DNA of 64,000 bases from Pristiophorus japonicus. Taxonomy: Eukaryota. The translations under genes and the position numbers were made by a program. Location of the stretch: NCBI RefSeq assembly GCF_044704955.1, contig NC_091992.1, forward strand, positions 29,264,001-29,328,000, read 5' to 3'. The notes below the pieces were generated by a model, which did no database searches, was not told the DNA's origin, and was given only the letters and a program-made list of their open reading frames with translations. This document shows, piece by piece, positions 702-58,861 of this stretch. The first letter of the stretch is position 1. Every line of letters starts with the position of its first letter.

Positions 702-992
702 ATGGGGAATAGTTGCTCATGTACCCACACTACCGTAACTCAAATTCATTTCGTACAAGCTGATGGCTCTGCAGTTTCAGAAAGAGAATGCAACGACGAG
801 GGACAGATGGACCTGAAAGCAGGGAGCATACATGAAGCGGCAGAAGTAAAAGAAAAAGATGAAAAATGGAATATGCTCACTGTGGAGGTCAAGGCTCTGC
901 TAGACATTCGTCCAAGAGTGAGCGATATGGAGGAACTAATGGATCAAGTAAATGAAATGTTGAAAACTGATGACAACCTAGTCATTGCATCG
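702..992 (+). CDS. Atypical calpain, coding exon 1 (MGNSCSC... acidic/helical N-terminus)
   Basis: ATG at 702 is preceded by an in-frame TGA. 97 codons run to donor TCG|gtaatg (phase 0), matching the phase-0 start of the next exon. Confidence 0.7.
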
Positions 993-2918
993 GTAATGAG
1001 ATTTATATATTATACATTTTGCATAGTCAAAACTTTGACGAGCACAGGTTTGCTCCTTTTACAATTTACTTGTAATTTGTCCTCGAAAGATTTAAACAAA
1101 AATTCTACTGAAAGCTCATTATTATAATTGCATATTGTGGTTTGAAAGAAAAGTTCTTAACTTATAAAACTCCTTTTGTTGTTAACGTTGAATGTGCTGT
1201 AAATAGACAGGCCAGCAGTATTTGATTTGTTCCCATATTGCAGCATGTATGTAACAGACAGAACATCACATCCTGACTTAATACTTTTAGAAAGTGAAAT
1301 GCCATTACTGTATAAATGAATGTTATTTGTGCTAAAGGAAACTCTGATGGAGATGGTGCTACTTTTATAATATGGTACCTGCATAGTACCTCTGAATTTC
1401 ATATCCTTGTGATAACATACTTTTATGCCTTTAATCAGAATATATAATTGTACAAGCATTTATCTAACATTTCAGGCTCCACTTCTGTATCTGTACACTT
1501 GTACTTCTGTATCAGAGCTACTAGTTCTAGTGTAAGGGAAAATAGCATTGAAAGTATTAAAGTTAAGTTGTTGCATATTAACACGTTTGATTATTTTTTC
1601 ATTCTGGAAATTTTTTAACTTGTGAAAATGGTGCATTATAATGCCTGTCTGTCAGACCAATGGAAATTTTGATTGCTGTTTGGTGGATTAAAGGACTGAA
1701 TTAAAATGAAAATTTTGCAAATACATAAAAGGAACCAAAGCTGTTTTTTAAAAAATGAGATTAATGGCCATTTTAGACTCTGCCCAATAAACTGGTTTAT
1801 GTAATTAGGTGGGGAGAACTGTCCCAACCTATACTTTACAAAAGCAAAATACTGTGGATGCTGGAATCTGAAATAAAAACAGAAAATGCCAACCTATAGT
1901 TTAATCCTTAAACAGTCATACTGCAATTCACAAATAATAGTTATTTAGTGTATCTTTGGATTTTTAATATGTTAGACATCAGAATCAGCATATGTTTTGG
2001 ATCAATACTACAGCTAAATACATTTTTTATAAGATTTTTCTTGCTACACCACAGAGTTCAAGAGAGCAGTTGGACCGGTTACTCCTATGTCTTGCTCTGA
2101 AACTGCCACTGGCAGGCACTACACTGTTACTAATGCAAAACAATCTTGTGGTGAATTCACATTACAAGTTTTGTGTCACTGTGAAGTGATTTTAAATTTA
2201 TATGGTGCTAAACGTGTGTGTATTTTGGGTATCAAGGCTTGAATTGATACTGAATTCAGGAAGCATTTACACTTTACACTGATTCTACAATAGGGGGCCC
2301 TTAAAATGTTGTGTGCTTCTGGGCTGGAGCCTGACACTGACAAGCACATTTCAATTTGCAATATTCCTTGACCAAACAATTCAAGTTCAAATGACCTGAT
2401 AGCACTTCTTACTTAACAATTAGACTATGTGTTCGACTTTAATATTACAGTAATACAGTGTGCATTATATGCTATAATTCTCTTCTTATAAAACAGCATA
2501 ATTCCTGAATTATCATGAGAAATGGCACGGGAGATTCATTGGTAATTTATTAAAAATTAACTGTCTAGTATGCAGACATCACATTGTTTTGCATAATGTA
2601 GTAACATTTTAAAATGTTGCTTCTAAGCTTCAATCTTAATCGGACATTCCAATTTGCAAAATTCACAGACCAAATTCTGTCCTGAGCCGTGACCTTATTA
2701 ATCACACTTAAGCATAATGTAGAACGTTGATTTGACTTGCAATTGATCTAAGCATTGATTTCAAAAATACAAAGCACTCACAACTTGTATCGTTAAAGTG
2801 GTTCATACCTTTATATTGGCAGCAGAATAATGGATTGCATATTACATGGTATAATAGCAGGTGTTAACATAAGAATTAGGAGCAGGACTAGGTCACACGG
2901 CGCCTCGAGCCTGCTCCA

Positions 2919-3009
2919 CTTTTAATAATATTGCATATGTAAATAAGTGTGGCATTGTAATGCAACACTATAATGTCACACTTATTTACATATGCAATAT
3001 TATTAAAAG
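2919..3009. repeat. ~91-bp near-perfect inverted repeat (hairpin)
   Basis: cttttaataatattgcatatgtaaataagtgtggcattgta ... tataatgtcacacttatttacatatgcaatattattaaaag. Confidence 0.9.
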
Positions 3010-3094
3010 AAAAGAAAGGAGATCAGTTATTGACCTGAGGCCTGAAATTTACAAATAATTTACACATCTCTAATTGACTTCAGTTATAAAAAAA

Positions 3095-3562
3095 TAACAA
3101 TTTGTATTTATATAGCACCTTTCACAACCTCAGAATGTCCCAAAAGCACTTTAAAGCCACTGAAGTACTTTTAAAGTGTAATCACTGTTGTAATGTAAGA
3201 AACACAGCAACCAATTTACACACAGAAAGCTCCCACAAACAACCATGTGATAATGACCAGATAATCTGTTTGGATTGTCATATTAATTGAGGGAAAAGTA
3301 TTGGCCAGGACACTGTGGATAATTCCCCTCTCCTGCCCTTCTTCGAAATAATGCCACGGGATCTTTTACATCCACCTGAGAGAGCAGGGCCTTGGTTTAA
3401 CGTCTCAGCCAAAAGACGGCACCTCCAACAGTGCAGCACTCCCTCAGTACTGCACTGGGTGTCAGCCTAGATTTTATTTACTCAAGCCTCTGGAATTGGA
3501 CTATGAACCCACGACTTTCTGATGCAGAGGCGAGTGTACTATCAACTGAGCCATGGCTGACC
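3095..3562 (-). mobile_element. tRNA-derived Deu-type SINE (SacSINE1-like) with L2-type tail
   Basis: Reverse complement of the copy at 32707-33140: tRNA-like head, ggaggtgccgtcttt..gagacgttaaacc core, gctatataaatacaa tail. Confidence 0.7.
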
Positions 3563-4178
3563 AACAACTGCAATTGCCTGGATTCCCATAGATACTCTTT
3601 GAGCAAGCAGCTACCACACCCGAGCTATCACTGCCATTCTCCAGACCAAAGTCTGTCTGTGGATAATGCCATGGAAACTCATCTAATTTTACATATTTTT
3701 GTTAATTTAAAGTGAATGAATTTTATTGAAACTTTCAAAAATTAAAAGCAACACTCTGAAAATAATATAGAGTGTGAATAGCTGGAAACAACATTATCAA
3801 CTATGGCAAAAAATATTAATCTGAAATACATAGCTACTATTAATCGCAAAAGAGTGATTAGTACTATTAAGTGTGACTTTTCTGTTTATATGATTGCACT
3901 AAGAAATATACTGGGCTAGAAATTAGTTTTGGTGATACTCGGAAACTGTTAATGTGTTCGTATGCCATTCCTTTGCCCGGTATTTAAAATAAATGAGTTA
4001 AAGCCTGCAGGAAAACAGCAGGCAGAGGATAGTTGCTTGGATGTGTATGTGTCGGCTCATTAAGATTACCAACAGTAATTTCTTGCTTATAATGTTTAAA
4101 TTATACATTTTATTTTGAATACACATAAATGCCATATTCCATTGTAACCACTAGGCTTTTTCTTCTTTTATTATTTAG

Positions 4179-4310
4179 GACTATCAGAATATTATAGAAG
4201 AGCTTGAGCTGACTGGGGAACTCTGGGAAGATCCTGAATTTCTTCCTGAACCTTCATCACTAACCTATGAGGACGTAGCCCCAAAAGGAATCGAATGGAT
4301 CCGTATCTTG
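4179..4310 (+). CDS. Calpain exon 2 (DYQNIIEELELTGELWEDPEFLPEPSSL...IEWIRIL)
   Basis: Polypyrimidine-tttag acceptor and TTG|gtaact donor. Contains the calpain 'L(F/W)EDPEF.P...SL' and 'W.R' motifs. Confidence 0.92.
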
Positions 4311-4789
4311 GTAACTGCGTGATGGTCCCATACCAACCAGACCTAGATATATTTTGTCAATGTCAGAAAGAACAACCATCCTAAAATATTCTGGATTTTT
4401 AAAATTCCTAACCAAGATAAAATAGCTGAGAATATGTGGATTTTCTGCAGCATGAAAGATAGATGTTGAGAAGAGATGTTGAGGTAGAAATTTGTTTTGG
4501 GCAATAGTGCTAGATGGGCAGTATTGTATTAGCCGCCCATTATACTCTCCGCCAGATATTTAGTTCCATTGCCTTCAATAGGCCTGGAAAAGTGGCCCAT
4601 GCGATGCTGCCCATTTAGCGCTATGTGTAATTTCTGACAAATACTTTATGGCATTACTTCCCAAGGACATTTAGCAATGGAAAATAAGCAGCTCCAGCAT
4701 AGCAAAAGGCATTTGCCAGCCTTGCTGTGGATTTATTTTAACTTCCCAAAGCTGACAGGAGTAGGTGGCAGATTGTAATATAACCAAAT

Positions 4790-5012
4790 AAAATGAAAAC
4801 CGAAAACGCTGGAAGTTCACAGTGAGTCAGTCAGCATGTAAAAGGAAAAGATTTTGGATGTGTTATTGACAGTACAGTTTAAGAAACGTTTCCTTAGAGA
4901 AAGATTAATTAATGACGAAAGGCCATCGGCCTAAAATGTAAACTCCACCTTCCTCATGCCACAGATGCTGCCTGACCTGATGAATGTTTCCAGCATTTTT
5001 TGTTTTAATTCA
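4790..5012. repeat. Palindromic short interspersed repeat (related partial copies at ~1835-1890, 40500-40700, 57790-57885)
   Basis: Arms aaaacgctggaa...cagtcagcat and atgctgcctgacctg...ttccagcatttt are approximate reverse complements. Confidence 0.55.
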
Positions 5013-5358
5013 CATATGTTTTGCTTAATTGCAGTGCTTTCAGCCAATTTCCTTAAATTCTCTACCAATCAGCTTGTTTCTCTCCGAAAGTGAAGTGCCA
5101 TGAGGCATTTTATTATGTCAAAGGTGCTATACAAATTGGACAAATACTTCAATTGATAACAGTTTCAGGGCTGTGGTGAAAGAGCAGGGGAATGGGATTG
5201 ATTGGATAGCTGTACTAGAAGCCGAATGGCCTCTGTCTGTGCTGTATCATTCGATGATTCTATGAAATGCAAGTTGTTAATTATTCATTCCTAACACTTG
5301 AAATTTAATTAGAAGAATGGTGCTCCATTATATAAATCCCTTATTTCTTTGTTACTAG

Positions 5359-5503
5359 GACCTACACGAAAATGCTTTCTTTATGACAGATGGGGTTAGC
5401 AAAAGTGACATTGTACAGGGGGAGCTGGGAGACTGCTGGTTTTGGGCCTCAGTGGCTACAATAGCCAATTCCAAAAGACTGACAGAGCGGGTTATTCCAT
5501 CAG
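5359..5503 (+). CDS. Calpain exon 3, catalytic Cys (DIVQGELGDCWFWAS)
   Basis: QGxLGDCW active-site motif; ctag acceptor and CAG|gtgaga donor (phase 1). Confidence 0.96.
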
Positions 5504-5821
5504 GTGAGAATTTAGATTTTTTAAACTGAGAATTTCAGATTACTATTCGTTTTGTGGGTCACTACATTAAAGTTTTGAGTTCACTTTTATTTAAATGCAG
5601 CAAAAAGCAAAGCTAGAAGTATAAGTTTTACAGACATATATGTACTACATAATGAATAACTTGATCTGATAAGTTATTGCAAAAGACAGCTTTGTATATA
5701 TTGCTCCTGCTTGTCATGATGTTAGAATGTTTCAATGCTCACATCACAAAATGCAGTAACATTTTCGTGTTTGTGTATCACCCAGCGTACACCACTGTTA
5801 TAACCAGGGTCTTAGGGTAAC

Positions 5822-10469: not shown

Positions 10470-10889
10470 ATGTAGGAAATGTAGTTGTTTCACATGCCTG
10501 TTTCTCTATTTTTGTTCTGATAATTAATTCTCACACTTTGCTCAAAGACTTGTTATTAAACATAGTTGTGATACATTTTATAAGTCAAGGTGCTCCAACA
10601 ATGGGGAGTTGGTCCTGAAAGGACCCAGCAGAGCAGTAGCTTTGAGTTTAATCGCCTCTAGGATTGATTAGCTGTGGCAGCAACAGTTGCTGGTGTCGTT
10701 CCATTGAAACCTTTAAAGGACATAATGGGAGAAATTGCAGGAGAAACCCAGGAACTCCCTTAGATTTGCCCACTTTCAAATGGTAGGACTGGTGAAAGAT
10801 CTGCCCTTTTGTTTTCTCTCTCCCCCTTCCCCTAATGATTGTAACATTCAGCTAAGACACAGGTGTGACTCGACTTGTCAAACATATTT

Positions 10890-12128
10890 CCAATAAAGTG
10901 GACAAAGGAGTACCAGTTGATGTGGTATATTTGGACTTTCAGAAGGCTTTCGACAAGGTCCCACACAGGAGATTAATGTGCAAAGTTAAAGCACATGGGA
11001 TTGGGGGTAGTGTGCTGACGTGGATTGAGAACTGGTTGTCAGACAGGAAGCAAAGAGTAGGAGTAAATGGGTACTTTTCGGAATGGCAGGCAGTGACTAG
11101 TGGGGTACCGCAGGGTTCTGTGCTGGGGCCCCAGCTGTTTACATTGTACATTAATGATTTAGACGAGGGGATTAAATGTAGTATCTCCAAATTTGCGGAT
11201 GACACTAAGTTGGGTGGCAGTGTGAGCTGCGAGGAGGATGCTATGAGGCTACAGAGTGACTTGGATAGGTTAGGTGAGTGGGCAAATGCGTGGCAGATGA
11301 AGTATAATGTGGATAAATGTGAGGTTATCCACTTTGGTGGTAAAAACAGAGAGACAGACTATTATCTGAATGGTGACAGATTAGGAAAAGGGAAGGTGCA
11401 ACGAGACCTGGGTGTCATGGTACATCAGTCATTGAAGGTTGGCATGCAGGTACAGCAGGCGGTTAAGAAAGCAAATGGCATGTTGGCCTTCATAGCGAGG
11501 GGATTTGAGTACAGGGGCAGGGAGGTGTTGCTACAGTTGTACAGGGCCTTGGTGAGGCCACACCTGGAGTATTGTGTACAGTTTTGGTCTCCTAACTTGA
11601 GGAAGGACATACTTGCTGTTGAGGGAGTGCAGCGAAGATTCACCAGACTGATTCCCGGGATGGTGGGACTGACCTATCAAGAAAGACTGAATCAACTGGG
11701 CTTGTATTCACTGGAGTTCAGAAGAGTGAGAGGGGACCTCATAGAAACGTTTAAAATTCTGACGGGTTTGGACAGGTTGGATGCAGGAAGAATGTTCCCA
11801 ATGTTGGGGAAGTCCAGAACCAGGGGTCACAGTCTAAGGATAAGGGGTAAGCCATTTAGGACCGAGATAAGGAGAAACTTCTTCACCCAGAGAGTGGTGA
11901 ACCTGTGGAATTCTCTACCACAGGAAGTAGTTGAGGCCAATTCACTAAATATATTCAAAAGGGAGTTAGATGAAGTCCTTACTACTCGGGGGATCAAGGG
12001 GTATGGCGTGAAAGCAGGAAGTGGGTACTGAAGTTTCATGTTCAGCCATGAACTCGTTGAATGGCGGTGCAGGCTAGAAGGGCTGAATGGCCTGCTCCTG
12101 CACCTATTTTCTATGTTTCTATGTTTCT
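10890..12128 (+). mobile_element. 5'-truncated young CR1 LINE (RT C-terminal half, ORF still open)
   Basis: ORF 10865-12031 has YLDFQKAFDKV, GVPQGSVLGP and FADD; (ctatgttt)n tail; TSD atattt. Near-identical to 53800-55039. Confidence 0.95.
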
Positions 12129-12366
12129 ATATTTAATTAATATCTTAATGCATCACAAAATCCTGGTGACCTACTTCCACAAGCGTAGGCAAGTAGCTTG
12201 AGGCTAGATTAGGGACAAACCTGAACAGATGACAAAGTAAAAACAGACAGGTAGTTGAATGTAAGTGTCTGAACCTACTGTTTGCATGCAAACTACTACA
12301 TATGTCCACATTCTATTTCTAAACATCTATTACCATATCTGCCTAGTATTATTTTTAAGGTAATAT

Positions 12367-17328: not shown

Positions 17329-17329
17329 A

Positions 17330-18912: not shown

Positions 18913-19096
18913 GTCAGTGTATCACTGGAAAAACTCCATATTGTGGAATCTTCCGTTTCCGATTCTGGCAATTTGGGAAATGGGTAGAAATTCTGGTGGA
19001 TGATTATTTGCCAACAAGAAATGGACAACTTATTTATGCCAGATCAGAAGCTGGCAACGAATTCTGGCCATCGCTTTTTGAAAAGGCATTTGCAAA
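18913..19096 (+). CDS. Calpain exon 4 ([25 protein letters not shown]...[13 protein letters not shown])
   Basis: Hallmark CysPc motifs; cacag acceptor and AA|gtaagt donor; phases 1/2 are consistent. Confidence 0.96.
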
Positions 19097-21126: not shown

Positions 21127-21307
21127 GCTGCACGGTTCGTATAAAGCAATCGAAGGAGGGTGGACACTGGATGCTCTGATTGATCTCACTGGTGGTGTTG
21201 GTGAAATGTACAGATTTTCAGAATTCGCAGATAGAGGCGAGGAGTTGTACAACCATCTTGCTGCTGCCTCCAGGAAGAATGCTCTGATGGCCTGTGGGAC
21301 AGGAAAG
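21127..21307 (+). CDS. Calpain exon 5 (LHGSYKAIEGGWTLDALIDLTGG...ALMACGTGK)
   Basis: L.GSY.A..GG....A..D.TGG motif; cgcag acceptor and AAG|gtcagg donor. Confidence 0.94.
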
Positions 21308-23245: not shown

Positions 23246-23317
23246 GAAGACAAAAGATCCGGAAAGCAAGATGGTTTAGTTGCTGGCCATGCCTATAGCG
23301 TCACTGCAGTAAAAAAG
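23246..23317 (+). CDS. Calpain exon 6, catalytic His (DGLVAGHAYSVTAVKK)
   Basis: GLV.GHAYS motif; tttag acceptor and AAG|gtaatg donor; 72 bp, phases 0/0. Confidence 0.95.
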
Positions 23318-25044: not shown

Positions 25045-28000
25045 ATGACAGCACTGGAGCTGCGGATGGACTCACTCTGGAGCATGCGCGGTGCTGAGAA
25101 TGTTGTGGATAGCACATTTAGTGAGTTGGTCACACCACAGGTAAGGGTTAGGACAGATAGTGAATGGGTGACCAAGAGACAAGGCAAGAGCAAAAAAGGT
25201 AGTGCAGGAGTCCCCTGCGGTCTTCTCCCTCCAAAACAGATATACCGTTTTGGATACTGTTGGGGGAGATGACTTACCAGGGGAAGGCACCAGCAGCCAG
25301 GTTCATGGCACCGTGGGTGGCTCTGCTGCACAGAAGGGTGGGAAAAAGAGTGGGAGAGCTATAGTGATAGGGGACTCTATTGTAAGGGGAATAGATAGGA
25401 GTTTCTGCAGCCGCAACCGAGACTCCAGGATGGTATGTTGCCTCCCTGGTGCAAGGGTCAAGGATGTCTCAGAGCGGCTGCAGAGCATTCTGAAGAGGGA
25501 GGGTGAACAGCCAGTTGTCGTGGTACATGTAGGTACCAACGATATAGGTAAAAAGCGGGAAGAGGTCCTACAAGCTGAATTTAGGGGGCTAGGAGTTAAA
25601 TTAAAAAGTAGGACCTCAAAGGTAGTAATCTCTAGATTGCTACCAGTGCCACATGCTAATCAGAATAGAGGGAGCAGGATAGTTAGAATAAATACGTGGC
25701 TTGAGCAGTGGTGCAAGAGGGAGGGATTCAAATTCCTGGGACATTGGAACCAGTTCTGGGGGAAGTGAGACCGGTACAAAAGGGATGGTTTGCACTTGGG
25801 CAGGAGTGGAACTGATGTCCTAGGGGTAACATTTGCTAATGCAGTTCGGGAGTGTTTAAACTAATATGGCAGGGGGATGGGAACCTATGCAGCGAGATAG
25901 GGCGAAGTAATATGGAGTCAGAAACAGATGGTAGAAAGATAAAAAGCAATAGTGGAAGGCAAGAAACAAAAAGGGCCACACTACATCATAATTCTAAAAG
26001 GACAAAGGGTGTTAAAAAAACAAGCCAGAAGGCTTTGTGTCTTAATGCAAGGAGTATCCGTAATAAGGTGGATGAATTTACTGTGCAAATAGATGTTAAT
26101 GGATATGATGTGATTGGGATTACGGAGACATGGCTCCAGGATGATCAGGGCTGCGAACTCAACATCCATGGGTATTCAACATTCAGGAAGGATAGAATAA
26201 AAGGAAAAGGAGGTGGGGTAGCATTGCTGGTTAAAGAGGAGATTAATGCAATAGTTAGGAAGGACATTAGCTTGGATGATGTGGAATCTATATGGGTAGA
26301 GATGCAGAACACCAAAGGGCAAAAAACGTTAGTGGGAGTTGTGTACAGACCTCCAAACAGTAGTAGTGATGTTGGGGAAGGCATCAAACAGGAAATTAGG
26401 GGTGCATGCAATAAAGGTGCAGCAGTTATCATGGGTGACTTTAATATGCATACAGATTGGGCTAACCAAACTGGAAGCAATACGGTGGAAGAGGATTTCC
26501 TGGAGTGCATAAGGGATGGTTTTCTAGACCAATATGTCGAGGAACCAACTAGGGGGGTGGCCATCTTAGACCGGGTGTTGTGTAATGAGAGAGGATTAAT
26601 TAGCAATCTCGTTGTGCGAGGCCCCTTGGGTAAGAGTGACCATAATATGGTGGAATTCTACATTAGGATGGAGAATGAAACAGTTAATTCAGAGACCATG
26701 GTCCAGAACTTAAAGAAGGGTAACTTTGAAGGTATGAGGCGTGAATTGGCTAGGATAGATTGGCGAATGATACTTAAGTGGATGGGCAATGGCAGACATT
26801 TAGAGACCGCATGGATGAACTACAACAATTGTACATCCCTTTCTGGCATAAAAATAAAAAAGGGAAGGTGGCTCAACCGTGGCTATCAAGGGAAATCAGG
26901 GATAGTATTAAAGCCAAGGAAGTGGCATACAAATTGGCCAGAAATAGCAGTGAACCTGGGAACTGGGAGAAATTTAGAACTCAGCAGAGGAGGACAAAGG
27001 GTTTGATTAGGGCAGGGAAAATAGTGTACGCGAGGAAACTTGCAGGGAACATTAAGACGGACTGCAAAAGTTTCTATAGATATGTAAAGAGAAAAAGGTT
27101 AGTAAAGACAAACGTAGGTCCCCTGCAGTCAGAATCAGGGGAAGTCATAACGGGGAACAAAGAAATGGCAGACCAATTGAACAAGTACTTTGGTTCGGTA
27201 TTCACTAAGGAGGACACAAACAACCTTCCGGATATAAAAGGGGTCAGAGGGTCTAGTAAGAAGGAGGAACTGAGGGAAATCCTTATTAGTCGGGAAATTG
27301 TGTTGGGAAAATTAATGGGATTGATGGCCGATAAATCCCCAGGGCCTGATGGACTGCATTCCAGAGTACTTAAGGAGGTGGCCTTGGAAATAGCGGATGC
27401 ATTGACAGTCATTTTCCAACATTCCATAGACTCTGGATCAGTTCCTATGGAGTGGAGGATAACCAATGTAACCCCACTTTTTAAAAAAGGAGGGAGAGAG
27501 AAAACAGGGAATTATAGACCGGTCAGCCTGACATCAGTAGTGGGTAAAATGATGGAATCAATTGTTAAGGATGTCATATCAGCGCATTTGGAAAGAGGTG
27601 ACATGATAGGTCCAAGTCAGCATGGATTTGTGAAAGCAAAATCATGCTTGACAAATCTTCTGGAATTTTTTGAGGATGTTTCCAGTAGAGTGCACAAGGG
27701 AGAACCAGTTGATGTGTATTTGGACTTTCAGAAGACTTTCGACAAAGTCCCACACAAGAGATTAATGTGCAAAGTTAAAGCACATGGGATTGGGGGAAGT
27801 GTGCTGACGTGGATTGAGAACTGGTTGTCAGACAGGAAGCAAAGAGTAGGAGTAAATGGGTACTTTTCAGAATGGCAGGCAGTGACTAATGGGGTACCGC
27901 AAGGTTCTGTGCTGGGGCCCCAGCTGTTTACATTGTACATTAATGATTTAGACGAGGGGATTAAATGTAGTATCTCCAAATTTGCGGATAACACTAAGTT

Positions 28001-28918
28001 GGGTGGTAGTGTGAGCTGCGAGGAGGATGCTATGAGACTGCAGAGTGACTTGGATAGGTTAGGTGAATGGGCAAATGCATGGCAGATGAAGTATAATGTG
28101 GATAAATGTGAGGTTATCCACTTTGGTGGTAAAAACAGAGAGACAGACTATTATCTGAATGGTGACAGATTAGGAAAAGGGGAGGTGCAAAGAGACCTGG
28201 GTGTCATGGTACATCAGTCTTTGAAGATTGGCATGCAGGTACAGCAGGCAGTTAAGAAAGCAAATGGCATGTTGGCCTTCATAGCGAGGGGATTTGAGTA
28301 CAGGGACAGGGAGGTGTTACTACAGTTGTACAGGGCCTTGGTGAGGCCACACCTGGAGTATTGTGTACAGTTTTGGTCTCCTAACTTGAGGAAGGACATT
28401 CTTGCTATTGAGGGAGTGCAGCGAAGGTTCACCAGACTGATTCCCGGGATGGCGGGACTGACATATCAAGAAAGACTGGATCAACTGGGCTTGTATTCAC
28501 TGGAGTTCAGAAGAATGAGAGGGGATCTCATAGAAACGTTTAAAATTCTGACGGGGTTAGACAGGTTAGATGCAGGAAGAATGTTCCCAATGTTGGGGAA
28601 GTCCAGACCCAGGGGTCACAATCTAAGGATAAGGGGTAAGCCATTTAGGACCGAGACGAGGAGAAACTTCTTCACCCAGAGAGTGGTGAACCTGTGGAAT
28701 TCTCTATCACAGAAAGTTGTTGAGGCCAATTCACTAAATATATTCAAAAAGGAGTTAGATGTAGTCCTTACTACTAGGGGGAATCAAGGGATATGGCGAG
28801 AAAGCAGGAATGGGTACTGAAGTTGCATGTTCAGCCATGAACTCATTGAATGGCGGTGCAGGCTCGAAGGGCTGAATGGCCTACTCCTGCACCTATTTTC
28901 TATGTTTCTATGTTTCTA
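25045..28918 (+). mobile_element. Near full-length inactive CR1 (partial ORF1 esterase plus ORF2 APE-RT)
   Basis: ORF1 GDS/GTND SGNH motifs with a frameshift and a stop. ORF2 has a frameshift near 26777 and FADD changed to FADN. (ctatgttt)n tail. Confidence 0.95.
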
Positions 28919-34432: not shown

Positions 34433-34527
34433 CTAACCACTCCAAGAGGGAGAGTGCCCCTCGTTCGGATTCTCAATCCATGGGGTTCAGGGCAACATAT
34501 GGAATGGACAGGTGACTGGAGCGATAA
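34433..34527 (+). CDS. Calpain exon 7, catalytic Asn (LVRILNPWGSGQHMEWTGDWSD)
   Basis: NPWG...EW.G.WSD motif; cctatag acceptor and AA|gtaagt donor. Confidence 0.95.
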
Positions 34528-49493: not shown

Positions 49494-49571
49494 TTCTCCA
49501 CTATGGAATCAAATCCCGATCTGGACCAGGGAGTCATTTGGATTTACCAAGAAGGATGATGGTGAATTCTG
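49494..49571 (+). CDS. Calpain exon 8 (SPLWNQIP...KKDDGEFW)
   Basis: S..W..I...DDGEFW motif; ttctgcaag acceptor and TG|gtagga donor; phases 2/2. Confidence 0.92.
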
Positions 49572-49683
49572 GTAGGACATTTCAGCCCATCAATTTCACA
49601 TTATTTAATAATTGTTCTTTTGCTGTTTATACTGCTGGTAAATTGTCCAGTCAGCACTGTCATAACACGGTCTTATTTCATAG

Positions 49684-49769
49684 GATGAAGTTCGATGACT
49701 TCTGTGAAAAATTTGCAAATGTCACAGTTTTGACTCTGGGGCCTGACTTTGATGGTGACGGAGGTGCAG
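49684..49769 (+). CDS. Calpain exon 9 (MKFDDFCEKFANVTVLTLGPDFDGDGGA)
   Basis: W|M.F.DF...F end of CysPc; catag acceptor and G|gtaacg donor; the preceding intron is 112 bp. Confidence 0.92.
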
Positions 49770-50074: not shown

Positions 50075-50840
50075 GAGGAGGCGGGAGCTCGGAGCAGCGC
50101 GAGTCCGGGGTCGGCGAGAGGCCTATAAAGGCCAGCGGGAGCTCGGAGCAGTCAGTCGAGGAGGCGGGAGCTCGGAGCAGCGCGAGTCCGGGGTCGGCGA
50201 GAGGCCTATAAAGGCCAGCGGGAGCTCGGAGCAGTCAGTCGAGGAGGCGGGAGCTCGGAGCAGCGCGAGTCCGGGGTCGGCGAGAGGCCTATAAAGGCCA
50301 GCGGGAGCTCGGAGCAGTCAGTCGAGGAGGCGGGAGCTCGGAGCAGCGCGAGTCCGGGGTCGGCGAGAGGCCTATAAAGGCCAGCGGGAGCTCGGAGCAG
50401 TCAGTCGAGGAGGCGGGAGCTCGGAGCAGCGCGAGTCCGGGGTCGGCGAGAGGCCTATAAAGGCCAGCGGGAGCTCGGAGCAGTCAGTCGAGGAGGCGGG
50501 AGCTCGGAGCAGCGCGAGTCCGGGGTCGGCGAGAGGCCTATAAAGGCCAGCGGGAGCTCGGAGCAGTCAGTCGAGGAGGCGGGAGCTCGGAGCAGCGCGA
50601 GTCCGGGGTCGGCGAGAGGCCTATAAAGGCCAGCGGGAGCTCGGAGCAGTCAGTCGAGGAGGCGGGAGCTCGGAGCAGCGCGAGTCCGGGGTCGGCGAGA
50701 GGCCTATAAAGGCCAGCGGGAGCTCGGAGCAGTCAGTCGAGGAGGCGGGAGCTCGGAGCAGCGCGAGTCCGGGGTCGGCGAGAGGCCTATAAAGGCCAGC
50801 GGGAGCTCGGAGCAGCGCGAGTCCGGGGTCGGCGAGAGGC
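50075..50840 (+). repeat. 83-bp GC-rich tandem array (about 9 units) in the CR1 5' UTR
   Basis: TATAAA recurs at 50124, 50207, 50290, 50373, 50456, 50539, 50622, 50705 and 50788 (exact 83-bp period). Confidence 0.95.
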
Positions 50841-50880
50841 GTACCGGTGCAGCTACAGGGAGAAGGCAAAAAAAACAAAG

Positions 50881-50923
50881 GTGACGTCACAGCCTAGGCG
50901 GTAAGTGATTGGCTGGTGATTGG
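50881..50923 (+). promoter_or_regulatory. CRE palindrome plus two inverted CCAAT boxes in the CR1 5' UTR
   Basis: gTGACGTCAc at 50881-50890, then gtgATTGGctggtgATTGG. Motif match only. Confidence 0.45.
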
Positions 50924-51008
50924 TGAGTAGTTTTTCTTTTTCTTCTTATATTAGTCAGTAACTTTTAACATTGTTATTACCAGTTTAAGTGTATCTAAGG
51001 GTTAAGAC

Positions 51009-51956
51009 ATGGCAGGAGAGCTCGGTCGGGTGTTATGCTCCTCCTGTACCATGTGGGAACTCAGGGACGCTTCCGGTGTCCCTGACGACTATGTGTGCGG
51101 GAAGTGTATCCGCCTCCAGCTCCTGACGGTCCGCGTTACGGAATTGGAGCTGAAGGTGGATTCACTCTGGAGCATCCACGATGCTGAGAATGACGTGAGT
51201 ATCACGTGTAGTGAGTTGGTCTTACCGCAGGGAAAGGGTCCACAGCCAGATAGGGAATGGAAGACCAGCAGGAAGAGTAGAGCAAGGAAGGTAGTGCAGG
51301 GGTCCCCTGCGGTCATCCCCCTGCAAAACAGATACACCGCTTTGGGTACTGTTGAGGGGAATGACTCATCAGGGGAGGGCAGCAGCAGCCAAGTTCATGG
51401 CACCGTGGCTGGCTCTGCTGCACAGGAGGGCAAGAAAAAGAGTGGGAGAGCGATAGTGATAGGGGATTCAATTGTGAGGGGAATAGATAGGCGTTTCTGC
51501 GGCCGCAACCGAGACTCCAGGATGGTATGTTGCCTCCCTGGTGCAAGGGTCAAGGATGTCTCGGAGCGGGTGCAGGACATTCTGAAATGGGAGGGAGAAC
51601 AGCCAGTTGTCGTGGTGCACATTGGTACCAACGACATAGGCAAAAAAAGGGATGAGGTCCTACGAAACGAATTTAAGGAGCTAGGAGCTAAATTAAAAAG
51701 TAGGACCTCAAAAGTAGTAATCTCGGGATTGCTACCAGTGCCACGTGATAGTCAGAGTAGGAATCGCAGGATAGCGCAGATGAATACGTGGCTTGAGCAG
51801 TGGTGCAGCAGGGAGGGATTCAAATTCCTGGGGCATTGGGACCGGTTCTGGGGGAGGTGGGACCAGTACAAACCGGACGGTCTGCACCTGGGCAGGACTG
51901 GAACCAATGTCCTCGGGGGAGTGTTTGCTAGTGCTGTTGGGGAGGATTTAAACTAA
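51009..51956 (+). CDS. CR1 ORF1p: zinc finger/leucine zipper plus SGNH esterase
   Basis: CSSC...CGKC, heptad LLTVRVTELELKVDSL, GDS, GTND and DGLH motifs; 315 aa. Confidence 0.93.
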   Translation: MAGELGRVLCSSCTMWELRDASGVPDDYVCGKCIRLQLLTVRVTELELKVDSLWSIHDAENDVSITCSELVLPQGKGPQPDREWKTSRKSRARKVVQGSPAVIPLQNRYTALGTVEGNDSSGEGSSSQVHGTVAGSAAQEGKKKSGRAIVIGDSIVRGIDRRFCGRNRDSRMVCCLPGARVKDVSERVQDILKWEGEQPVVVVHIGTNDIGKKRDEVLRNEFKELGAKLKSRTSKVVISGLLPVPRDSQSRNRRIAQMNTWLEQWCSREGFKFLGHWDRFWGRWDQYKPDGLHLGRTGTNVLGGVFASAVGEDLN

Positions 51957-52033
51957 TATGGCAGGGGGATGGGAACCAATGCAGGGAGACAGAGGGAAAC
52001 AAAAAGGAGCCAAAAGCAAAAGACAGAAAGGAG

Positions 52034-54940
52034 ATGAGGAAAAGTGTAGGGCAGAGAAACCCAAGGCAAAGAACAAAAAGGGCCACTGTACAGCAAAATT
52101 CTAAAAGGACAAAGGGTGTTAATAAAACAAGCCTGAAGGCTTTGTGTCTTAATGCAAGGAGTATCCGCAATAAGGTGGATGAATTAATTGTGCAAATAGA
52201 TGTTAACAAATATGATGTGATTGGGATTACGGAGACGTGGCTCCAGGATGATCAGGGCTGGGAACTCAACATTCAGGGGTATTCAACATTCAGGAAGGAT
52301 AGAATAAAAGGAAAAGGAGGTGGGGTAGCATTGCTGGTTAAAGAGGAGATTAATGCAATAGTTAGGAAAGACATTAGCTTGGATGATGTGGAATCTATAT
52401 GGGTAGAGCTGCAGAACACCAAAGGGCAAAAAACGTTAGTAGGAGTTGTGTACAGACCTCCAAACAGTAATAGGGATGTTGGGGAGGGCATCAAACAGGA
52501 AATTAGGGGTGCATGCAATAAAGGTGTAGCAGTTATAATGGGTGACTTTAATATGCACATAGATTGGGCTAGCCAAACTGGAAGCAATACGGTGGAGGAG
52601 GATTTCCTGGAGTGCATAAGGGATGGTTTTCTAGACCAATATGTTGAGGAACCAACTAGGGGGGAGGCCATCTTGGACTGGGTGTTGTGTAATGAGAGAG
52701 GATTAATTAGCAATCTCATTGTGCGAGGCCCCTTGGGGAAGAGTGACCATAATATGGTGGAATTCTGCATTAGGATGGAGAATGAAACAGTAAATTCAGA
52801 GACCATGGTCCAGAACTTAAAGAAGGGTAACTTTGAAGGTATGAGGCGAGAATTGGCTAGGATAGATTGGCGAATGATACTTAGGGGGTTGACTGTGGAT
52901 GGGCAATGGCAGACATTTAGAGACCGCATGGATGAAGTACAACAATTGTACATTCCTGTCTGGCGTAAAAATAAAAAGGGGAAGGTGGCTCAACCGTGGC
53001 TATCTAGGGAAATCAGGGATAGTATTAAAGCCAAGGAAGTGGCATACAAATTGGCCAGAAATAGCAGCGAACCTGGGGACTGGGAGAAATTTAGAACTCA
53101 GCAGAGGAGGACAAAGGGTTTGATTAGGACAGGGAAAATGGAGTACGAGAAGAAGCTTGCAGGGAACATTAAGGCGGATTGCAAAAGTTTCTATAGGTAT
53201 GTAAAGAGAAAAAGGTTGGTGAAGACAAACGTAGGTCCCCTGCAGTCAGAATCAGGGGAAGTCATAACGGGGAACAAAGAAATGGCGGATCAATTGAACA
53301 AGTACTTTGGTTCGGTATTCACTAAGGAGGATACAAACAACCTTCCGGATATAAAAGGGGTCAGAGGGTCTAGTAAGGAAGAGGAACTGAGGGAAATCTT
53401 TATTAGTCGGGAAATTGTGTTGGGGAAATTGATGGGATTGAAGGCAGATAAATCCCCAGGGCCTGATGGCCTGCATCCTAGAGTACTTAAGGAGGTGGCC
53501 TTGGAAATAGCGGATGCATTGACAGTCATTTTCCAACATTCCATTGACTCTGGATCAGTTCCTATGGAGTGGAGGGTAGCCAATGTAACCCCACTTTTTA
53601 AAAAAGGAGGGAGAGAGAAAACAGGGAATTATAGACCGGTCAGCCTGACCTCAGTAGTGGGTAAAATGATGGAATCAATTATTAAGGATGTCATAGCAGA
53701 GCATCTGGAAAATGGTGACATGATAGGTCCAAGTCAGCATGGATTTGTGAAAGGGAAATCATGCTTGACAAATCTTCTGGAATTTTTTGAGGATGTTTCC
53801 AGTAAAGTGGACAAAGGAGAACCAGTTGATGTGGTATATTTGGACTTTCAGAAGGCTTTCGACAAGGTCCCACACAAGAGATTAATGTGCAAAGTTAAAG
53901 CACATGGGATTGGGGGTAGTGTGCTGACGTGGATTGAGAACTGGTTGTCAGACAGGAAGCAAAGAGTAGGAGTAAACGGGTACTTTTCAGAATGGCAGGC
54001 AGTGACTAGTGGAGTGCCGCAAGGTTCTGTGCTGGGGCCCCAGCTGTTTACATTGTACATTAATGATTTAGACGAGGGGATTAAATGCAGTATCTCCAAA
54101 TTTGCGGATGATACTAAGTTGGGTGGCAGTGTGAGCTGCGAGGAGGATGCTATTAGGCTGCAGAGTGACTTGGATAGGTTAGGTGAGTGGGCAAATGCAT
54201 GGCAGATGAAGTATAATGTGGATAAATGTGAGGTTATCCACTTTGGTGGTAAAAACAGAGAGACAGACTATTATCTGAATGGTGACAGATTAGGAAAAGG
54301 GAAGGTGCAACGAGACCTGGGTGTCATGGTACATCAGTCATTGAAGGTTGGCATGCAGGTACAGCAGGCGGTTAAGAAAGCAAATGGCATGTTGGCCTTC
54401 ATAGCGAGGGGATTTGAATACAGGGGCAGGGAGGTGTTGCTACAGTTGTACAGGGCCTTGGTGAGGCCACACCTGGAGTATTGTGTACAGTTTTGGTCTC
54501 CTAACTTGAGGAAGGACATTCTTGCTATTGAGGGAGTGCAGCGAAGGTTCACCAGACTGATTCCCGGGATGGCGGGACTGACCTATCAAGAAAGATTGGA
54601 TCAATTGGGCTTGTATTCACTGGAGTTCAGAAGAATGAGAGGGGACCTCATAGAAACGTTTAAAATTCTGACGGGTTTAGACAGGTTAGATGCAGAAAGA
54701 ATGTTCCCAATGTTGGGGAAGTCCAGAACCAGGGGTCACAGTCTGAGGATAAGGGGTAAGCCATTTAGGACCGAGATGAGGAGAAACTTCTTCACCCAGA
54801 GAGTGGTGAACCTGTGGAATTCTCTACCACAGAAAGTAGTTGAGGCCAATTCACTAAATATATTCAAAAGGGAGTTAGATGAAGTCCTTACTACTCGGGG
54901 GATCAAGGGTTATGGCGAGAAAGCAGGAAGGGGGTACTGA
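52034..54940 (+). CDS. CR1 ORF2p: APE endonuclease plus reverse transcriptase
   Basis: CLNARS, GITETW, GDFN, SDH, KSPGPDG, YRPVSLTS, QGSVLGP and FADD motifs; 968 aa open. Confidence 0.96.
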   Translation: MRKSVGQRNPRQRTKRATVQQNSKRTKGVNKTSLKALCLNARSIRNKVDELIVQIDVNKYDVIGITETWLQDDQGWELNIQGYSTFRKDRIKGKGGGVALLVKEEINAIVRKDISLDDVESIWVELQNTKGQKTLVGVVYRPPNSNRDVGEGIKQEIRGACNKGVAVIMGDFNMHIDWASQTGSNTVEEDFLECIRDGFLDQYVEEPTRGEAILDWVLCNERGLISNLIVRGPLGKSDHNMVEFCIRMENETVNSETMVQNLKKGNFEGMRRELARIDWRMILRGLTVDGQWQTFRDRMDEVQQLYIPVWRKNKKGKVAQPWLSREIRDSIKAKEVAYKLARNSSEPGDWEKFRTQQRRTKGLIRTGKMEYEKKLAGNIKADCKSFYRYVKRKRLVKTNVGPLQSESGEVITGNKEMADQLNKYFGSVFTKEDTNNLPDIKGVRGSSKEEELREIFISREIVLGKLMGLKADKSPGPDGLHPRVLKEVALEIADALTVIFQHSIDSGSVPMEWRVANVTPLFKKGGREKTGNYRPVSLTSVVGKMMESIIKDVIAEHLENGDMIGPSQHGFVKGKSCLTNLLEFFEDVSSKVDKGEPVDVVYLDFQKAFDKVPHKRLMCKVKAHGIGGSVLTWIENWLSDRKQRVGVNGYFSEWQAVTSGVPQGSVLGPQLFTLYINDLDEGIKCSISKFADDTKLGGSVSCEEDAIRLQSDLDRLGEWANAWQMKYNVDKCEVIHFGGKNRETDYYLNGDRLGKGKVQRDLGVMVHQSLKVGMQVQQAVKKANGMLAFIARGFEYRGREVLLQLYRALVRPHLEYCVQFWSPNLRKDILAIEGVQRRFTRLIPGMAGLTYQERLDQLGLYSLEFRRMRGDLIETFKILTGLDRLDAERMFPMLGKSRTRGHSLRIRGKPFRTEMRRNFFTQRVVNLWNSLPQKVVEANSLNIFKRELDEVLTTRGIKGYGEKAGRGY

Positions 54941-56321
54941 AGTTTCATGTTCAGCCATGAACTCATTGAATGGCGGTGCAGGCTAGAAGGGCTGAATGGC
55001 CTGCTCCTGCACCTATTTTCTATGTTTCTATGTTTCTATCTTTTAGTGCAGCAGGTGAAGGAGAAGGCAGCAGCCTGGAAAAGAGAAGGTTTCAGAGGCT
55101 TGCAACTTACAAAAGAAGCCACCTCAGGTAGCACATCAGCCATGAAGATGTGTCCGCTATCAGGGCATGGTGGAAGAGCAGAGAGCTATCAGCACGGCAT
55201 TACTACTGTCAGTGGAGGTCACCACTGCTCTCAACCTTTATGCCAGATAGTCCTTCCATGCAATCCGGGGGACATCAGAGGAGTTAGATGCTCTTTGGTG
55301 CACCACTTAATTGGGAAAGTAATTGATGCCTTGTTTATCCACACGCCACATCCATATACCTCAGCATCAACCAACTGCTGTAGTAACAGAGTTTTTCAAA
55401 ATTGGTGGCTTCCCTAAGATATAGAAATCACTGATTATATGTATATAGCCATTCACATGACAAGCCTAAAACATACCTCAATAGCAAAGGCTGTTATTCC
55501 ATACCCTTGCTTTTGGGTGTACATATGGGCCTAAATACAATGAGCACACACCAGTGATGAGGAACTTTATCTCCAGCCAATGCCAATTGGAAAACTCTGA
55601 GCAAAGTACCAGGAATTTCCAATATGTGCTGGTGGCAGTGGCCAGTGCTTGGACATGTAACCCACTGAGTCAATGTATATGGGGTGGTGTAAGAACATGT
55701 GTGGAAGTGAGACCTTAGTCCAGGAAAGAGAACGATAATTGAGTTATTACTTAACATAAAATAGTACAACCTCATTTAATAATACAGATACATTTGAAGC
55801 TTTTATCACATATTTATGTCTGAATTTACAGGACTATTTTTTTTATTCGTTCCGCGATATGGGTGTCGCTGGCAAGGCCGGCATTTATTGCCCATCCCTA
55901 ATTATTAATAAAATATAAGAAAAATCTCTGCTTATCCATCATTTGATAAAATGTAAGCTTATGTCTTACGCTTAAACCCGAACAAGGTCTTTCACATACA
56001 CTTAAATATTACAAATGCTCAGAGCCACTGCCCCTCCTCTATGCCCCCCCCCCCCCAACCACCAACATCCTCTTGGCAAGCCTTTGAAAAAAAGCGTCTA
56101 AGTACTTTTCACACCTTTTTAAAATGACTTCACTTCCTGCTGTTTTGTGTTGGAGAAATTCCCTTTCCTCACCTTCCTTATGTTCGAGCTAATTCTTCCC
56201 CACACAATCTGGCAGAATGTCACAGTTACTTCCACGTGTGGAAACCAATTGAGCTATCAGAGCCCAAAATCAACATAGCTAATTGTTAAGGACGTTGTTA
56301 ACATTTTTCTGCCCTTCACAG

Positions 56322-56444
56322 ATGCTGGCAACTTGCAGAAGGTGAAGTGTCGGTGGGTGACGGGAATTAACGCGGGCGGATGCAGAAATAATATGATGAA
56401 ATATAGCTGCAACCCTCAGTATCCCATCACTATCACTGAAACAG
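56322..56444 (+). CDS. Calpain exon 10, start of CBSW/domain III (RWVTGINAGGCRNN...NPQYPITI)
   Basis: W..G..AGGCRN....NPQY motif; cacag acceptor and G|gtgaga donor. Confidence 0.94.
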
Positions 56445-57278
56445 GTGAGAAAGAACTCCTGTGTAAACCTCTCATTTCCCCAAATAAAAGGAAGTTGTAG
56501 ATGTACCTCCCAGATGTTCCATTACTGTCACCTCCTTTTGAGCTCCTCTAATCAAGTGAAAAAATCTTCAAACAGTCAATGGATAGACAGGATTAACGTT
56601 TAGATGAAATAGATTAAATTATAACAGAAAGAAAAGGAAAAATAATCCATTGTGTTGTGGTGGGGGGGGCTGGCGGTAGAAATGACAATAAACAGTGCTA
56701 GAGCTTTGCCTTGCTGGATCTTGACTACATGTAGCAGCCAAACAGAAGAAGACCTTAGCCAGTGAGCTTGGGGTGGGGAACTAGTATGAACCATAAAGGG
56801 GAAACTAGAGAAGTAGATGAGGGACAATAAGAGAGCTTTGAACAATAAAGCAGTCAAGGGTTATGGGGAGTGGGCAGGGAAGTGGAGTTGAGGCCAAGAT
56901 CAGATCAACCATGATCTTACTGAATGGCGGAGCAGGGTCGAGAGACCAAATGGCCTACTCCTGCTCCTATTTCTTATGTTCTTATAAGGAAACTGCAGGT
57001 GTGAACATGTCCTTCCACACTGCAGTGTAGTAAAGCTGTATGTTAACACAAACCAGTCCACCTTCAATGTGACTGTGCCTTTGAACAGTACCTTTGCCGA
57101 TAATGCTTTTATTTTTCATTATGCTGAAAAATATCCATTTATCTTGTTGTCCCAATTGCTTTCTCATTACTGTGAAATGTGCATGGTTTCCTCAGCCGTT
57201 CTAACAACATCTGTTCTGTTAACTGAACAGAAATGCTAACAGACTATTTCTAGGCATGTGTTGTCTGTCACTCCATAG

Positions 57279-57412
57279 ATGTTCTTTCAAACAGTGAGGA
57301 AGACCATGACGATGGGGCATGCTCTGTCCTGATATGTTTAATTCAGAACTATCGAAGGATGGACAGGAAGCTTGGAATGTCAATGAATCCTATTGGGATA
57401 CAGATCTACAAA
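57279..57412 (+). CDS. Calpain exon 11 (acidic loop, CSVLICLIQNYRR...IGIQIYK)
   Basis: Domain III C...I.L.Q..RR.....IG..IY motif; ccatag acceptor and AAA|gtaagt donor. Confidence 0.9.
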
Positions 57413-57450
57413 GTAAGTTGAGAATTTATGTAATTTTCTGGCAAGAAGGT

Positions 57451-57743
57451 TGTAATGTATTTGCTTCATGGGTTCTTTGCTTAAGAATTCATAGCAACAC
57501 ATTGCTATTAAGAACTAGTTGGTTTATTAACAAAGGTTTAACACTGCACATTACCAGTTCATCCACCAGGCTCACATTAACCTGCCTCATTGTGGATCCC
57601 CCAAACCCAACTGGCAGGGATTTTATTGAGTCTTGTGAACATCACATGACTGGCTAAGCCACTCCCAACTCAACAGCTCTACAACTCTTTTTGTTCAACA
57701 GCTCTACACGCTTGTGAACATACTCACAGGTGCATACATTATA
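57451..57743. mobile_element. Solo LTR (same family as 21672-21946)
   Basis: Colinear homology with 21672-21946; starts tgtaatgtat and ends atacattata. Confidence 0.75.
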
Positions 57744-57888
57744 GAAGCCACATTTCTTTGCAAGCAAATCTAGTCAGCAGCGATTCCTTAATAAAAAGAG
57801 AAAATGCTGGAAATACTCAGGTCAGGCAGCAACTGTGGAGAGAGAAACAGAGATAACAATTCAGGTCAATAGCCCTTTGTTCAGATCT

Positions 57889-57962
57889 GGTGCTGTGGCT
57901 TAGTTGGTTAAAGCGCCTGTCTAGTAAACAGGAGATCCTGAGTTCAAATCTCAGCAGTGCCT
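57889..57962 (+). tRNA. tRNA-Thr (anticodon AGT), intronic
   Basis: GGTGCTGTGGCTTAGTTGGTTAAAGCGCCTGTCTAGTAAACAGGAGATCCTGAGTTCAAATCTCAGCAGTGCCT folds as a cloverleaf; A and B boxes present; T4 run at 57974-57977. Confidence 0.88.
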
Positions 57963-58615
57963 TAATTCCCATATTTTAATGGAATTCTCTCTCCATCCCA
58001 CACAATTCTCTTGGCACACTGATGCAAAGCTTGCACAGAAGTTCTGAAATACGTATTACAGCAACAATTCCTTGTTCAGGTGACTTACTTGATCGAGGAA
58101 AAAAAACAATAAATTAAGTTTAAAAGATATTTTCCTCTCCAATTCCTCCCCCCAAAAAGGAACTTCCACCTATATAGCACCCAATGCCTCTCAGGACATC
58201 CAAAAATTCTTCACCTCCAATGAACTATTTGAAGTGGATTACTATTATGAAGGTAAATGTGGGACTGAAGGCATTGACTCTTGCTGGCTACTGTTCCATC
58301 AATGCCAGCCACCCTATAGTTCCTCAACCATGATTGAGCCTGTGCAATGAGGGCCATCAGGCTATTCAGCTGTGGAGGGGCATCACAGTTGATGAGCTGT
58401 CAACAGAGACCGAGAATCAAATCTGGCCAAACCTTCTAAGGAGTGTCCTGATTTTCTCATTCTACTTTATAACAATAAAAACATCTTTCTGATGGTCTGT
58501 GATAAAACTTTGCGAGATATATAATGAGTTTTGTGATGTCCGCAGTGTCCAATACAAAGAAAAAAAAATCTTAAGCTGAACCGGAATTAAGTTATTTCCT
58601 TTCTCTTTCTGACAG

Positions 58616-58861
58616 TCTTTCGACCCAGAGAAGGCTCTAACTGCAGAGCATTTTACACTTCATGCAGAGGTTTTGGATTCAGGACCCTATGTAGCCCAGA
58701 GAAGCATAAACCTCCGTAGTAAACTTGCACCAGGACACTATGTAATCATTCCAAGTACCTTTGCGCCAGACACTGAAGGAGCATTTATGCTACGCATATT
58801 CACTGACGCTGCAATTCAGTTTCATGAGGGATTCAACCTTGAAGCAGAAGGAATGGACTGA
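58616..58861 (+). CDS. Calpain exon 12, terminal (LAPGHYVIIPSTFAPDTEGAFMLRIFTD...GMD*)
   Basis: L.PG.Y.I.PSTF.P..EG.F.LR.F motif; gacag acceptor; TGA at 58859-58861. The 12 exons sum to 1767 bp (588 aa plus stop). Confidence 0.92.
   Translation, partial: SFDPEKALTAEHFTLHAEVLDSGPYVAQRSINLRSKLAPGHYVIIPSTFAPDTEGAFMLRIFTDAAIQFHEGFNLEAEGMD

Follow-up and report, generated by a model that had tools for sequence, protein, structure and literature searches.

The 64,000-nucleotide stretch of the Pristiophorus japonicus genome analyzed here (NC_091992.1, forward-strand positions 29,264,001 to 29,328,000; hereafter the window) contains an intact 12-exon calpain gene whose product has a CysPc catalytic domain and a single CBSW domain and then stops, with no penta-EF-hand (PEF) domain. 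The product is probably a lipid-anchored, calcium-switched and likely monomeric membrane protease, and the gene likely belongs to the "bilaterian Truncated calpain family" of Hastings 2017 (PMC5650170). This extends a known family to the jawed vertebrates and does not amount to a new kind of enzyme.

Gene structure and transcript end

Splicing and translation of the twelve exons gave 1767 nucleotides, that is 588 codons and a TGA, with all 11 introns GT-AG (the acceptor of exon 8 reads AAG). Run on the raw window, a profile-guided spliced aligner recovered exons 2-12 and the identical 10 introns; its profile contained two orthologues, so this agreement with the exon model is not fully independent. 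The catalytic triad was located at Cys167, His326 and Asn350, and the TGA follows 18 residues after the FMLRIFT motif (residues 564-570). The first-pass annotation, made from the letters alone, had proposed twelve GT-AG exons encoding 588 residues, a complete Cys/His/Asn triad and a stop about 18 residues past that motif, and all of this was reproduced. Pfam Peptidase_C2 matches exons 2-7, with exons 2 and 6 scoring below the cut-off, and Calpain_III matches exons 10-12; exons 1, 8 and 9 gave no Pfam match, and the presence of a CBSW together with an exon 1 that matches no family is unlike the layout of CAPN15, in which zinc fingers and an SOH domain occur and a CBSW is absent. An in-frame TGA abutting the ATG and an AG acceptor upstream suggest that exon 1 is probably not the first transcribed exon. 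That TGA closes a seven-codon upstream open reading frame (ORF) in the same frame (window positions 678-701), which could damp translation. Another candidate exon, of 61 bp at 3134-3194, was discarded because it has no homology and was skipped by the aligner.

The end of the gene is supported by spliced contigs and by genomic searches. In contigs from three of three runs, all from one study, exon 11 is spliced to exon 12 and the sequence continues past the stop into a 3' untranslated region (UTR) of ~2 kb; the run type is absent from the record, and the spliced nature was judged from the contigs themselves, whose overhang at 58616 equals the last 30 bases of exon 11 and therefore identifies them as spliced. 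They extend to 60716, 60868 and 60891 with no joint leaving exon 12. Profile searches of the 305 kb downstream found no PEF exon (best E 6.8) and no C2 exon (best E 2); the PEF profile was positive behind five of five control paralogues and the C2 profile behind the one control with C2 exons, these C2 control exons scoring E 1.7e-8 or better. Full-length orthologue models terminate at the same position as the shark protein, and the full-length skate orthologue (P0008) matches only two Pfam families, Peptidase_C2 (PF00648, E 1.7e-100) and Calpain_III. The earlier claim that the gene ends in exon 12 is borne out, and no transcript splicing onward to EF-hand or C2 exons was seen. A UniRef protein labelled Pristiophorus japonicus is 100% identical to exon 12.

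Several observations count against a full-length protease as the usual product of the locus. An mRNA spanning exons 1-12 is not among the contigs, which carry just 289-497 unplaced bases upstream of exon 12; both public models of the gene begin in intron 9, directly after the 1002-codon ORF2 of a long interspersed nuclear element (LINE), their alternative first exons starting at the 3' end of this sense-strand element; many shark and ray models are pieces of 99-323 amino acids; and many sharks and rays have 3' models only. The locus might then be expressed mainly or only as CBSW-only transcripts (exons 10-12) initiated in intron 9, probably by LINE read-through, with the full protease rare or silent. 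We regard this as quite improbable, because every one of the 12 exons keeps an open frame and canonical splice sites and because joined full-length models are available for seven other species (Heptranchias, Narcine, two skates, sturgeon, paddlefish and bichir). Moreover, the catalytic exons are better conserved than the CBSW exons: against the Heptranchias orthologue, core exons 3-9 are 92-100% identical (29 of 29 residues in exon 9) and exons 10-12 are 80-91% identical, which indicates selection on the catalytic core. Fragmented assemblies can be expected to yield short contigs, and short and long forms can coexist.

The intron 9 element (50075-55040, plus strand) is itself a young LINE whose 5' end bears 8.9 identical 83-bp repeats and which contains a GDSL-esterase ORF1 of 316 codons and an open ORF2 for endonuclease and reverse transcriptase. 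A second copy at ~25055-28918 is 92% identical and frameshifted, and a 3' fragment lies at 10884-12136.

Table 1. Features of the calpain locus, in window coordinates
Feature	Position	Strand	Content and evidence
Exon 1, coding, residues 1-97	702..992	+	Met-Gly start, Cys5 and Cys7 (predicted myristoyl and palmitoyl anchor), then spacer
Exon 2, residues 98-141	4179..4310	+	CysPc begins; splicing, Pfam, aligner
Exon 3, residues 142-189	5359..5503	+	Catalytic Cys167 (5434-5436), core calcium ligand Asp158
Exon 4, residues 190-250	18913..19096	+	Core calcium ligand Glu239
Exon 5, residues 251-311	21127..21307	+	CysPc; splicing, Pfam
Exon 6, residues 312-335	23246..23317	+	Catalytic His326 (23288-23290)
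Exon 7, residues 336-366	34433..34527	+	Catalytic Asn350 (34475-34477), Trp352, calcium ligands Glu359 and Asp366
Exon 8, residues 367-392	49494..49571	+	Calcium ligands Asp389 and Glu391
Exon 9, residues 393-421	49684..49769	+	CysPc end and Dx[DN]xDG loop (from residue 414, base 49745)
Two alternative first exons, intron 9	54947..55318	+	Coding starts 54947 and 55288; public 227- and 177-residue CBSW-only models
Exon 10, residues 422-462	56322..56444	+	CBSW begins; splicing, Pfam
Exon 11, residues 463-507	57279..57412	+	CBSW with acidic loop; final 30 bases on spliced contigs
Exon 12, coding part, residues 508-588	58616..58861	+	CBSW end, short tail, TGA; splicing, Pfam, contigs
3' UTR, unspliced	58862..60891	+	AATAAA at 60807 and 60939; 3' limit approximate, from contigs
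TLC-domain gene, part of last TLC-domain exon	63931..64000	-	Neighbour, tail to tail with the calpain; not calpain

Placement among calpains and distribution in vertebrates

For comparison, 14 other calpains of the same genome were modelled, showing that it has separate classical, CAPN5/6-, 7-, 10- and 15-like (SOL-like) genes; the labels CAPN3, 9 and 12 were taken from named neighbours and the remainder from motifs and domain matches. One paralogue model was trimmed to its reliable 3' part, and C998, with a CBSW only, was excluded from the trees. IQ-TREE was run on subsets of 57, 42 and 30 rows drawn from a 217-row FastTree overview after removal of near-duplicates. Every IQ-TREE run with bootstraps united the window protein with its vertebrate orthologues in one clade at 100/100 support. 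This clade joins a group of invertebrate CysPc+CBSW calpains, with 100/99 support when linker columns were removed and long outgroups left out, and with 87/96 and 88/98 support when long outgroups were included. The invertebrate members of the PEF-less group come from amphioxus, tunicate, hemichordate, echinoderms, annelids, brachiopod, bryozoans, molluscs, chelicerates, centipede, crustaceans and cockroach; among them are Aplysia, Tachypleus, Patiria, Antedon and two Branchiostoma paralogues. Where a clade row has a scorable end, it stops 8-27 residues past the last CBSW strand motif.

The approximately unbiased (AU) test rejected a union of the gene with the vertebrate classical calpains (p 0.013), with all classical calpains (0.016), with the CAPN5/6-like calpains (0.031), with the CAPN13-like row (0.006) and with the CAPN1/2-like rows (8e-8). 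Intron positions agree: seven are ancestral and shared, three are specific to the gene, and the three classical-specific and two CAPN5/6-specific positions are absent. The proposal that the gene lies outside every numbered vertebrate CAPN group thus withstood the trees and the AU tests, with no nesting in a named orthogroup. On the other side, the vertebrate stem is long (0.74-0.99) and could hide another origin, the AU p values are modest and the rows are not independent, and PEF has been lost repeatedly, as shown by copepod and insect rows that lack it yet fall within the classical calpains. The gene could accordingly be imagined to descend by duplication from a vertebrate classical calpain or from CAPN5/6, with its tail lost in the manner of those copepod rows. 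We consider this very unlikely given the AU rejections, the differing intron positions, the separate classical, CAPN5/6-, 7-, 10- and 15-like genes retained in the genome, and a linker motif and N-terminus (see below) common to invertebrate PEF-less calpains and not to any vertebrate CAPN.

Three copepod-labelled rows (P0128, P0130 and P0146) form a separate PEF-less group nested among the classical calpains, an independent loss of PEF. Crustacean muscle calpain (CalpM) was considered as kin and set aside: a literature search for it returned no paper, and the PEF-less copepod rows fall with the classical calpains and outside the clade. The shark has three CAPN5/6-like genes (C10:214.1 Mb, C6:35.1 Mb and C20:97.6 Mb), which, the C6 copy included, keep the Cys, His and Asn triad, unlike mammalian CAPN6; the C20 copy clusters with a teleost protein that bears the label si:dkey-19b23.13. 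The contigs C651 and C2354 carry near-identical copies of the C28 and C20 calpain loci, which are probably uncollapsed haplotypes.

The architecture and taxon set of the clade match those of the Truncated family, and the two are therefore likely the same family. The first-pass annotation had suggested an unnamed lineage, which does not quite hold, as the invertebrate family has been described and named; it was described without vertebrate members or a CAPN number. In the accessible text of PMC5650170, the family is reported from molluscs, horseshoe crab, sea urchin and amphioxus (two members in the last), it is weakly supported (bootstrap 36 with Atypical clades) with a possible relation to CAPN10, and the vertebrates sampled are human, frog, zebrafish and fugu, with no vertebrate Truncated member. 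One point limits this identification: the Aplysia CysPc+CBSW row of our clade (P0056) could not be matched to AplTRUNC1 (XP_005105403.1). The combination of CysPc with a C2L/CBSW domain is described as an ancient eukaryotic architecture in the available part of PMC3563603. No vertebrate Truncated member was found in the open literature searched, and no such gene is listed in the accessible text of a survey of vertebrate classical calpains (PMC4043111) or of a 2026 fish survey (PMC13664112).

Orthologues were found among sharks, rays and chimaera in Heptranchias, Narcine, Amblyraja, Leucoraja, Chiloscyllium, Rhincodon, Carcharodon, Cetorhinus, Hypanus, Hemitrygon and Callorhinchus, and outside the cartilaginous fish in Acipenser, Polyodon, Polypterus, Erpetoichthys, Latimeria and Protopterus. 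They are 60-89% identical to the full-length model, compared with 28-41% for the genome's own 14 paralogue models, and below them match scores drop to amphioxus and other invertebrates. The suggestion of an invertebrate-like lineage retained in cartilaginous fish is thus correct in its first part, the nearest non-orthologous relatives being invertebrate, and too narrow in its second, since sturgeon, paddlefish, bichir, reedfish, coelacanth and lungfish also have the gene. Public annotation names the gene after fly or worm genes, mostly as "calpain-A-like" or "clp-1-like", or splits it. No teleost, gar, cyclostome or tetrapod protein occurred among the best 120 of 3206 matches (316-1007 residues only). 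A search for shorter homologues covered 30-123 residues and returned three uninformative fragments, with split or partial teleost, gar, lamprey and tetrapod models falling outside its scope, and in a library clustered at 50% identity one representative can conceal further orthologues. Provisionally, the gene appears to be absent from teleosts and tetrapods.

Predicted membrane anchor, calcium sites and mode of action

The shark protein starts with Met-Gly followed by Cys5, Ser6 and Cys7, and proteins that are dually acylated typically combine Gly2, a small residue at position 6 and a nearby Cys. Gly2 is present in 32 of 40 full-length clade rows versus 14 of 126 others, Gly2 with a Cys within residues 3-7 in 26/40 versus 2/126, and Gly2 with Ser, Thr or Cys at position 6 in 31/40 versus 2/126; the rows are related, so these counts are not independent. 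The same initial residues occur in skates, bamboo shark, sturgeon, paddlefish and bichir; across sharks, sturgeon and bichir the first 16 residues hardly vary, in contrast to the divergent remainder of the spacer, and residues 1-88 of the skate orthologue have a predicted local distance difference test (pLDDT) score <50. The conservation of Gly2, Cys5, Ser6 and Cys7 fits a predicted myristoylation and palmitoylation, and at the level of sequence the acylation-type motif is shared with invertebrate PEF-less calpains and not with any vertebrate CAPN.

The two core calcium sites have six side-chain ligands (listed in Table 3 of PMC4057710); the shark protein has all six, and among 53 clade rows they are retained in 48-52, while the Trp next to the catalytic Asn (Trp352) is likewise conserved. 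Because the ligands of both sites are kept, activation of the core by calcium is to be expected. Between core and CBSW the linker reads D-x-D-x-D-G-x-x-D (residues 414-422), of which residues 414-419 form Dx[DN]xDG. The strict motif is found in the linker of 36/50 clade rows versus 1/161 others, counts that again come from related rows; classical calpains show no pattern of this kind at that site. The last Asp of the loop, Asp422, straddles the exon 9/10 junction, is widely kept in the clade and is a candidate for a later acidic ligand. Dx[DN]xDG is the calcium-loop pattern treated in PMC3123361, whose available text does not contain the word "calpain", and no calcium site of this kind in the hinge was found described for any calpain in the literature searched. 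In an AlphaFold model of the skate orthologue (pLDDT 80), the loop is a coil between two strands (pLDDT 82-88), and the best structural match of the model is calcium-bound m-calpain (3bow, E 2e-51).

Not all rows conform, and the exceptions tell against an anchored enzyme with a third calcium site. The full-length Heptranchias and Narcine models lack the Met-Gly-Cys start, the strict loop is missing in 14/50 rows (being degenerate in paddlefish, bichir, reedfish and several invertebrate paralogues), and the shark loop has no acidic residue at EF-hand position 12. The decay of the loop in paddlefish and bichirs indicates that it is not essential everywhere. The protein may thus be a Truncated-family calpain that is soluble and gated by the two core calcium sites alone, with an N-terminus that is unacylated or often skipped and a DxDxDG loop that is structural. 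We judge this unlikely, while giving it more weight than the other alternatives, because the first 16 residues are near-invariant in an otherwise divergent spacer and Gly2 and the Cys recur clade-wide. Furthermore, Dx[DN]xDG loops are described in the accessible text of PMC3123361 as taking an extra ligand at variable distance, and the corresponding part of PMC10536834 reports that the xDxDxDGxxD pattern of PepX binds calcium in a crystal structure.

A lipid-anchored, calcium-switched protease therefore remains the preferred interpretation, and a mode of action can be proposed for it. Probably Met1 would be removed, Gly2 myristoylated and Cys5 and Cys7 palmitoylated, so that a spacer of ~90 residues would link the enzyme to a membrane. 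By analogy with the cores of calpain-1 and -2, binding of calcium at the two core sites would very likely align Cys167, His326 and Asn350. The hinge loop, Dx[DN]xDG-x-x-D, may bind a further calcium and so tune activation or stability in place of PEF, a step for which the arguments on either side seem to us evenly balanced. In calpains, PEF mediates pairing with the small subunit and contacts with calpastatin; in its absence the enzyme would not pair with a small subunit, would lack the PEF contacts used by calpastatin, and would be expected to make limited cuts in membrane-proximal substrates.

Locus, history and relation to known calpain systems

Upstream, PRPF8 is encoded on the minus strand in head-to-head orientation with the calpain, and the next gene downstream encodes a TLC domain, with a coding exon ~5 kb past the calpain stop; from its family and position we infer this neighbour to be TLCD2. 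For the flank, the longest 145 of 691 candidate frames were run through Pfam, and the synteny evidence is that of this genome only. In the human and rat gene lists in the available parts of PMC6102823 and PMC4501283, PRPF8 neighbours TLCD2 and no calpain intervenes. The Atlas returned generic calpain clusters for the protein and a generic TLC label for the neighbour. The TLC-domain gene covers at least 77 kb of the minus strand (within C16:29328001-29408000). A long BEACH-domain exon, probably WDR81-like, is found far away on the same contig, at 3.0 Mb, and the mammalian block is thus broken beyond the TLC gene. Intron 11 (57413-58615) harbors a tRNA-Thr(AGT) on the plus strand, the sole tRNA and sole Rfam match in the window; Rfam gave no match in 150 kb of flank.

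These data suggest a history in which the bilaterian ancestor had the gene, a single copy would have stood between PRPF8 and TLCD2 in the jawed-vertebrate ancestor, and this interval would likely have lost the copy in mammals, and probably in teleosts as well. Mammals, frog and teleosts, in which the gene was not found, are the lineages from which the list of vertebrate calpains was compiled, and an ancestral orthogroup therefore seems to have been missed. CAPN10 may also be concerned. In one tree it falls inside the Truncated clade (88/98) as sister to the second amphioxus paralogue (88/88), and in two others it lies outside on a long branch, so the link is tentative; its phase-1 intron in the core-CBSW linker is two columns from that of the shark gene. 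CAPN10 shares 28% identity with the shark protein, has no Gly-Pro-Asp loop and is a separate gene on another contig. A more ambitious joint reading, which we put forward as possible and less than probable, would have the gene represent an ancestral jawed-vertebrate class of dually acylated, membrane-tethered calpains in which a single Dx[DN]xDG loop in the hinge replaces PEF, the same bilaterian gene giving rise to CAPN10 through a second chordate paralogue and a duplication of the CBSW, with losses from the PRPF8-TLCD2 interval in mammals and separately in teleosts. The gene may help place the origin of CAPN10, a gene linked to diabetes.

Compared with known systems, the shark protein shares with the classical calpains CAPN1/2/3/8/9/11/12/13/14/17 (as listed in the accessible text of PMC4043111) the CysPc fold, the triad, the two core calcium sites, the CBSW, seven intron positions and 34-35% structural-alignment identity to m-calpain; it differs in having no PEF, a different N-terminus, three introns absent and three new. 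Like CAPN5, CAPN6 and TRA-3 it lacks PEF, and CAPN5 is membrane-associated through S-acylation according to the part available of bioRxiv 10.1101/2022.01.25.477766, but the shark protein has no C2 domain, its anchor motif is N-terminal and its introns differ. CAPN7 and CAPN10 have tandem CBSW domains, with an MIT domain in CAPN7, whereas the shark protein has one CBSW. In the Plasmodium falciparum calpain, N-terminal fatty acylation sets trafficking; that enzyme has an unrelated long N-terminal domain and nucleolar targeting (PMC2746569, available part). The closest likeness is to the Truncated family, whose members have, as the shark protein does, a catalytic domain and one C2L/CBSW with nothing after. 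The accessible text of PMC5650170 leaves these calpains' activity, regulation and function as an open question, its main text, as available, does not use the term "myristoyl", and the available text of PMC10762896 states that animal calpains are cytosolic and contains neither "myristoyl" nor "acylation". Relative to the family as described, the jawed-vertebrate, tunicate, myriapod, crustacean and cockroach members are new here, as are the acylation motif and the Dx[DN]xDG loop. The Truncated family thereby gains concrete, testable features in two predicted lipid sites and a predicted third calcium site, and a natural PEF-less calpain free of a small subunit would reveal how a core lacking EF-hands is regulated.

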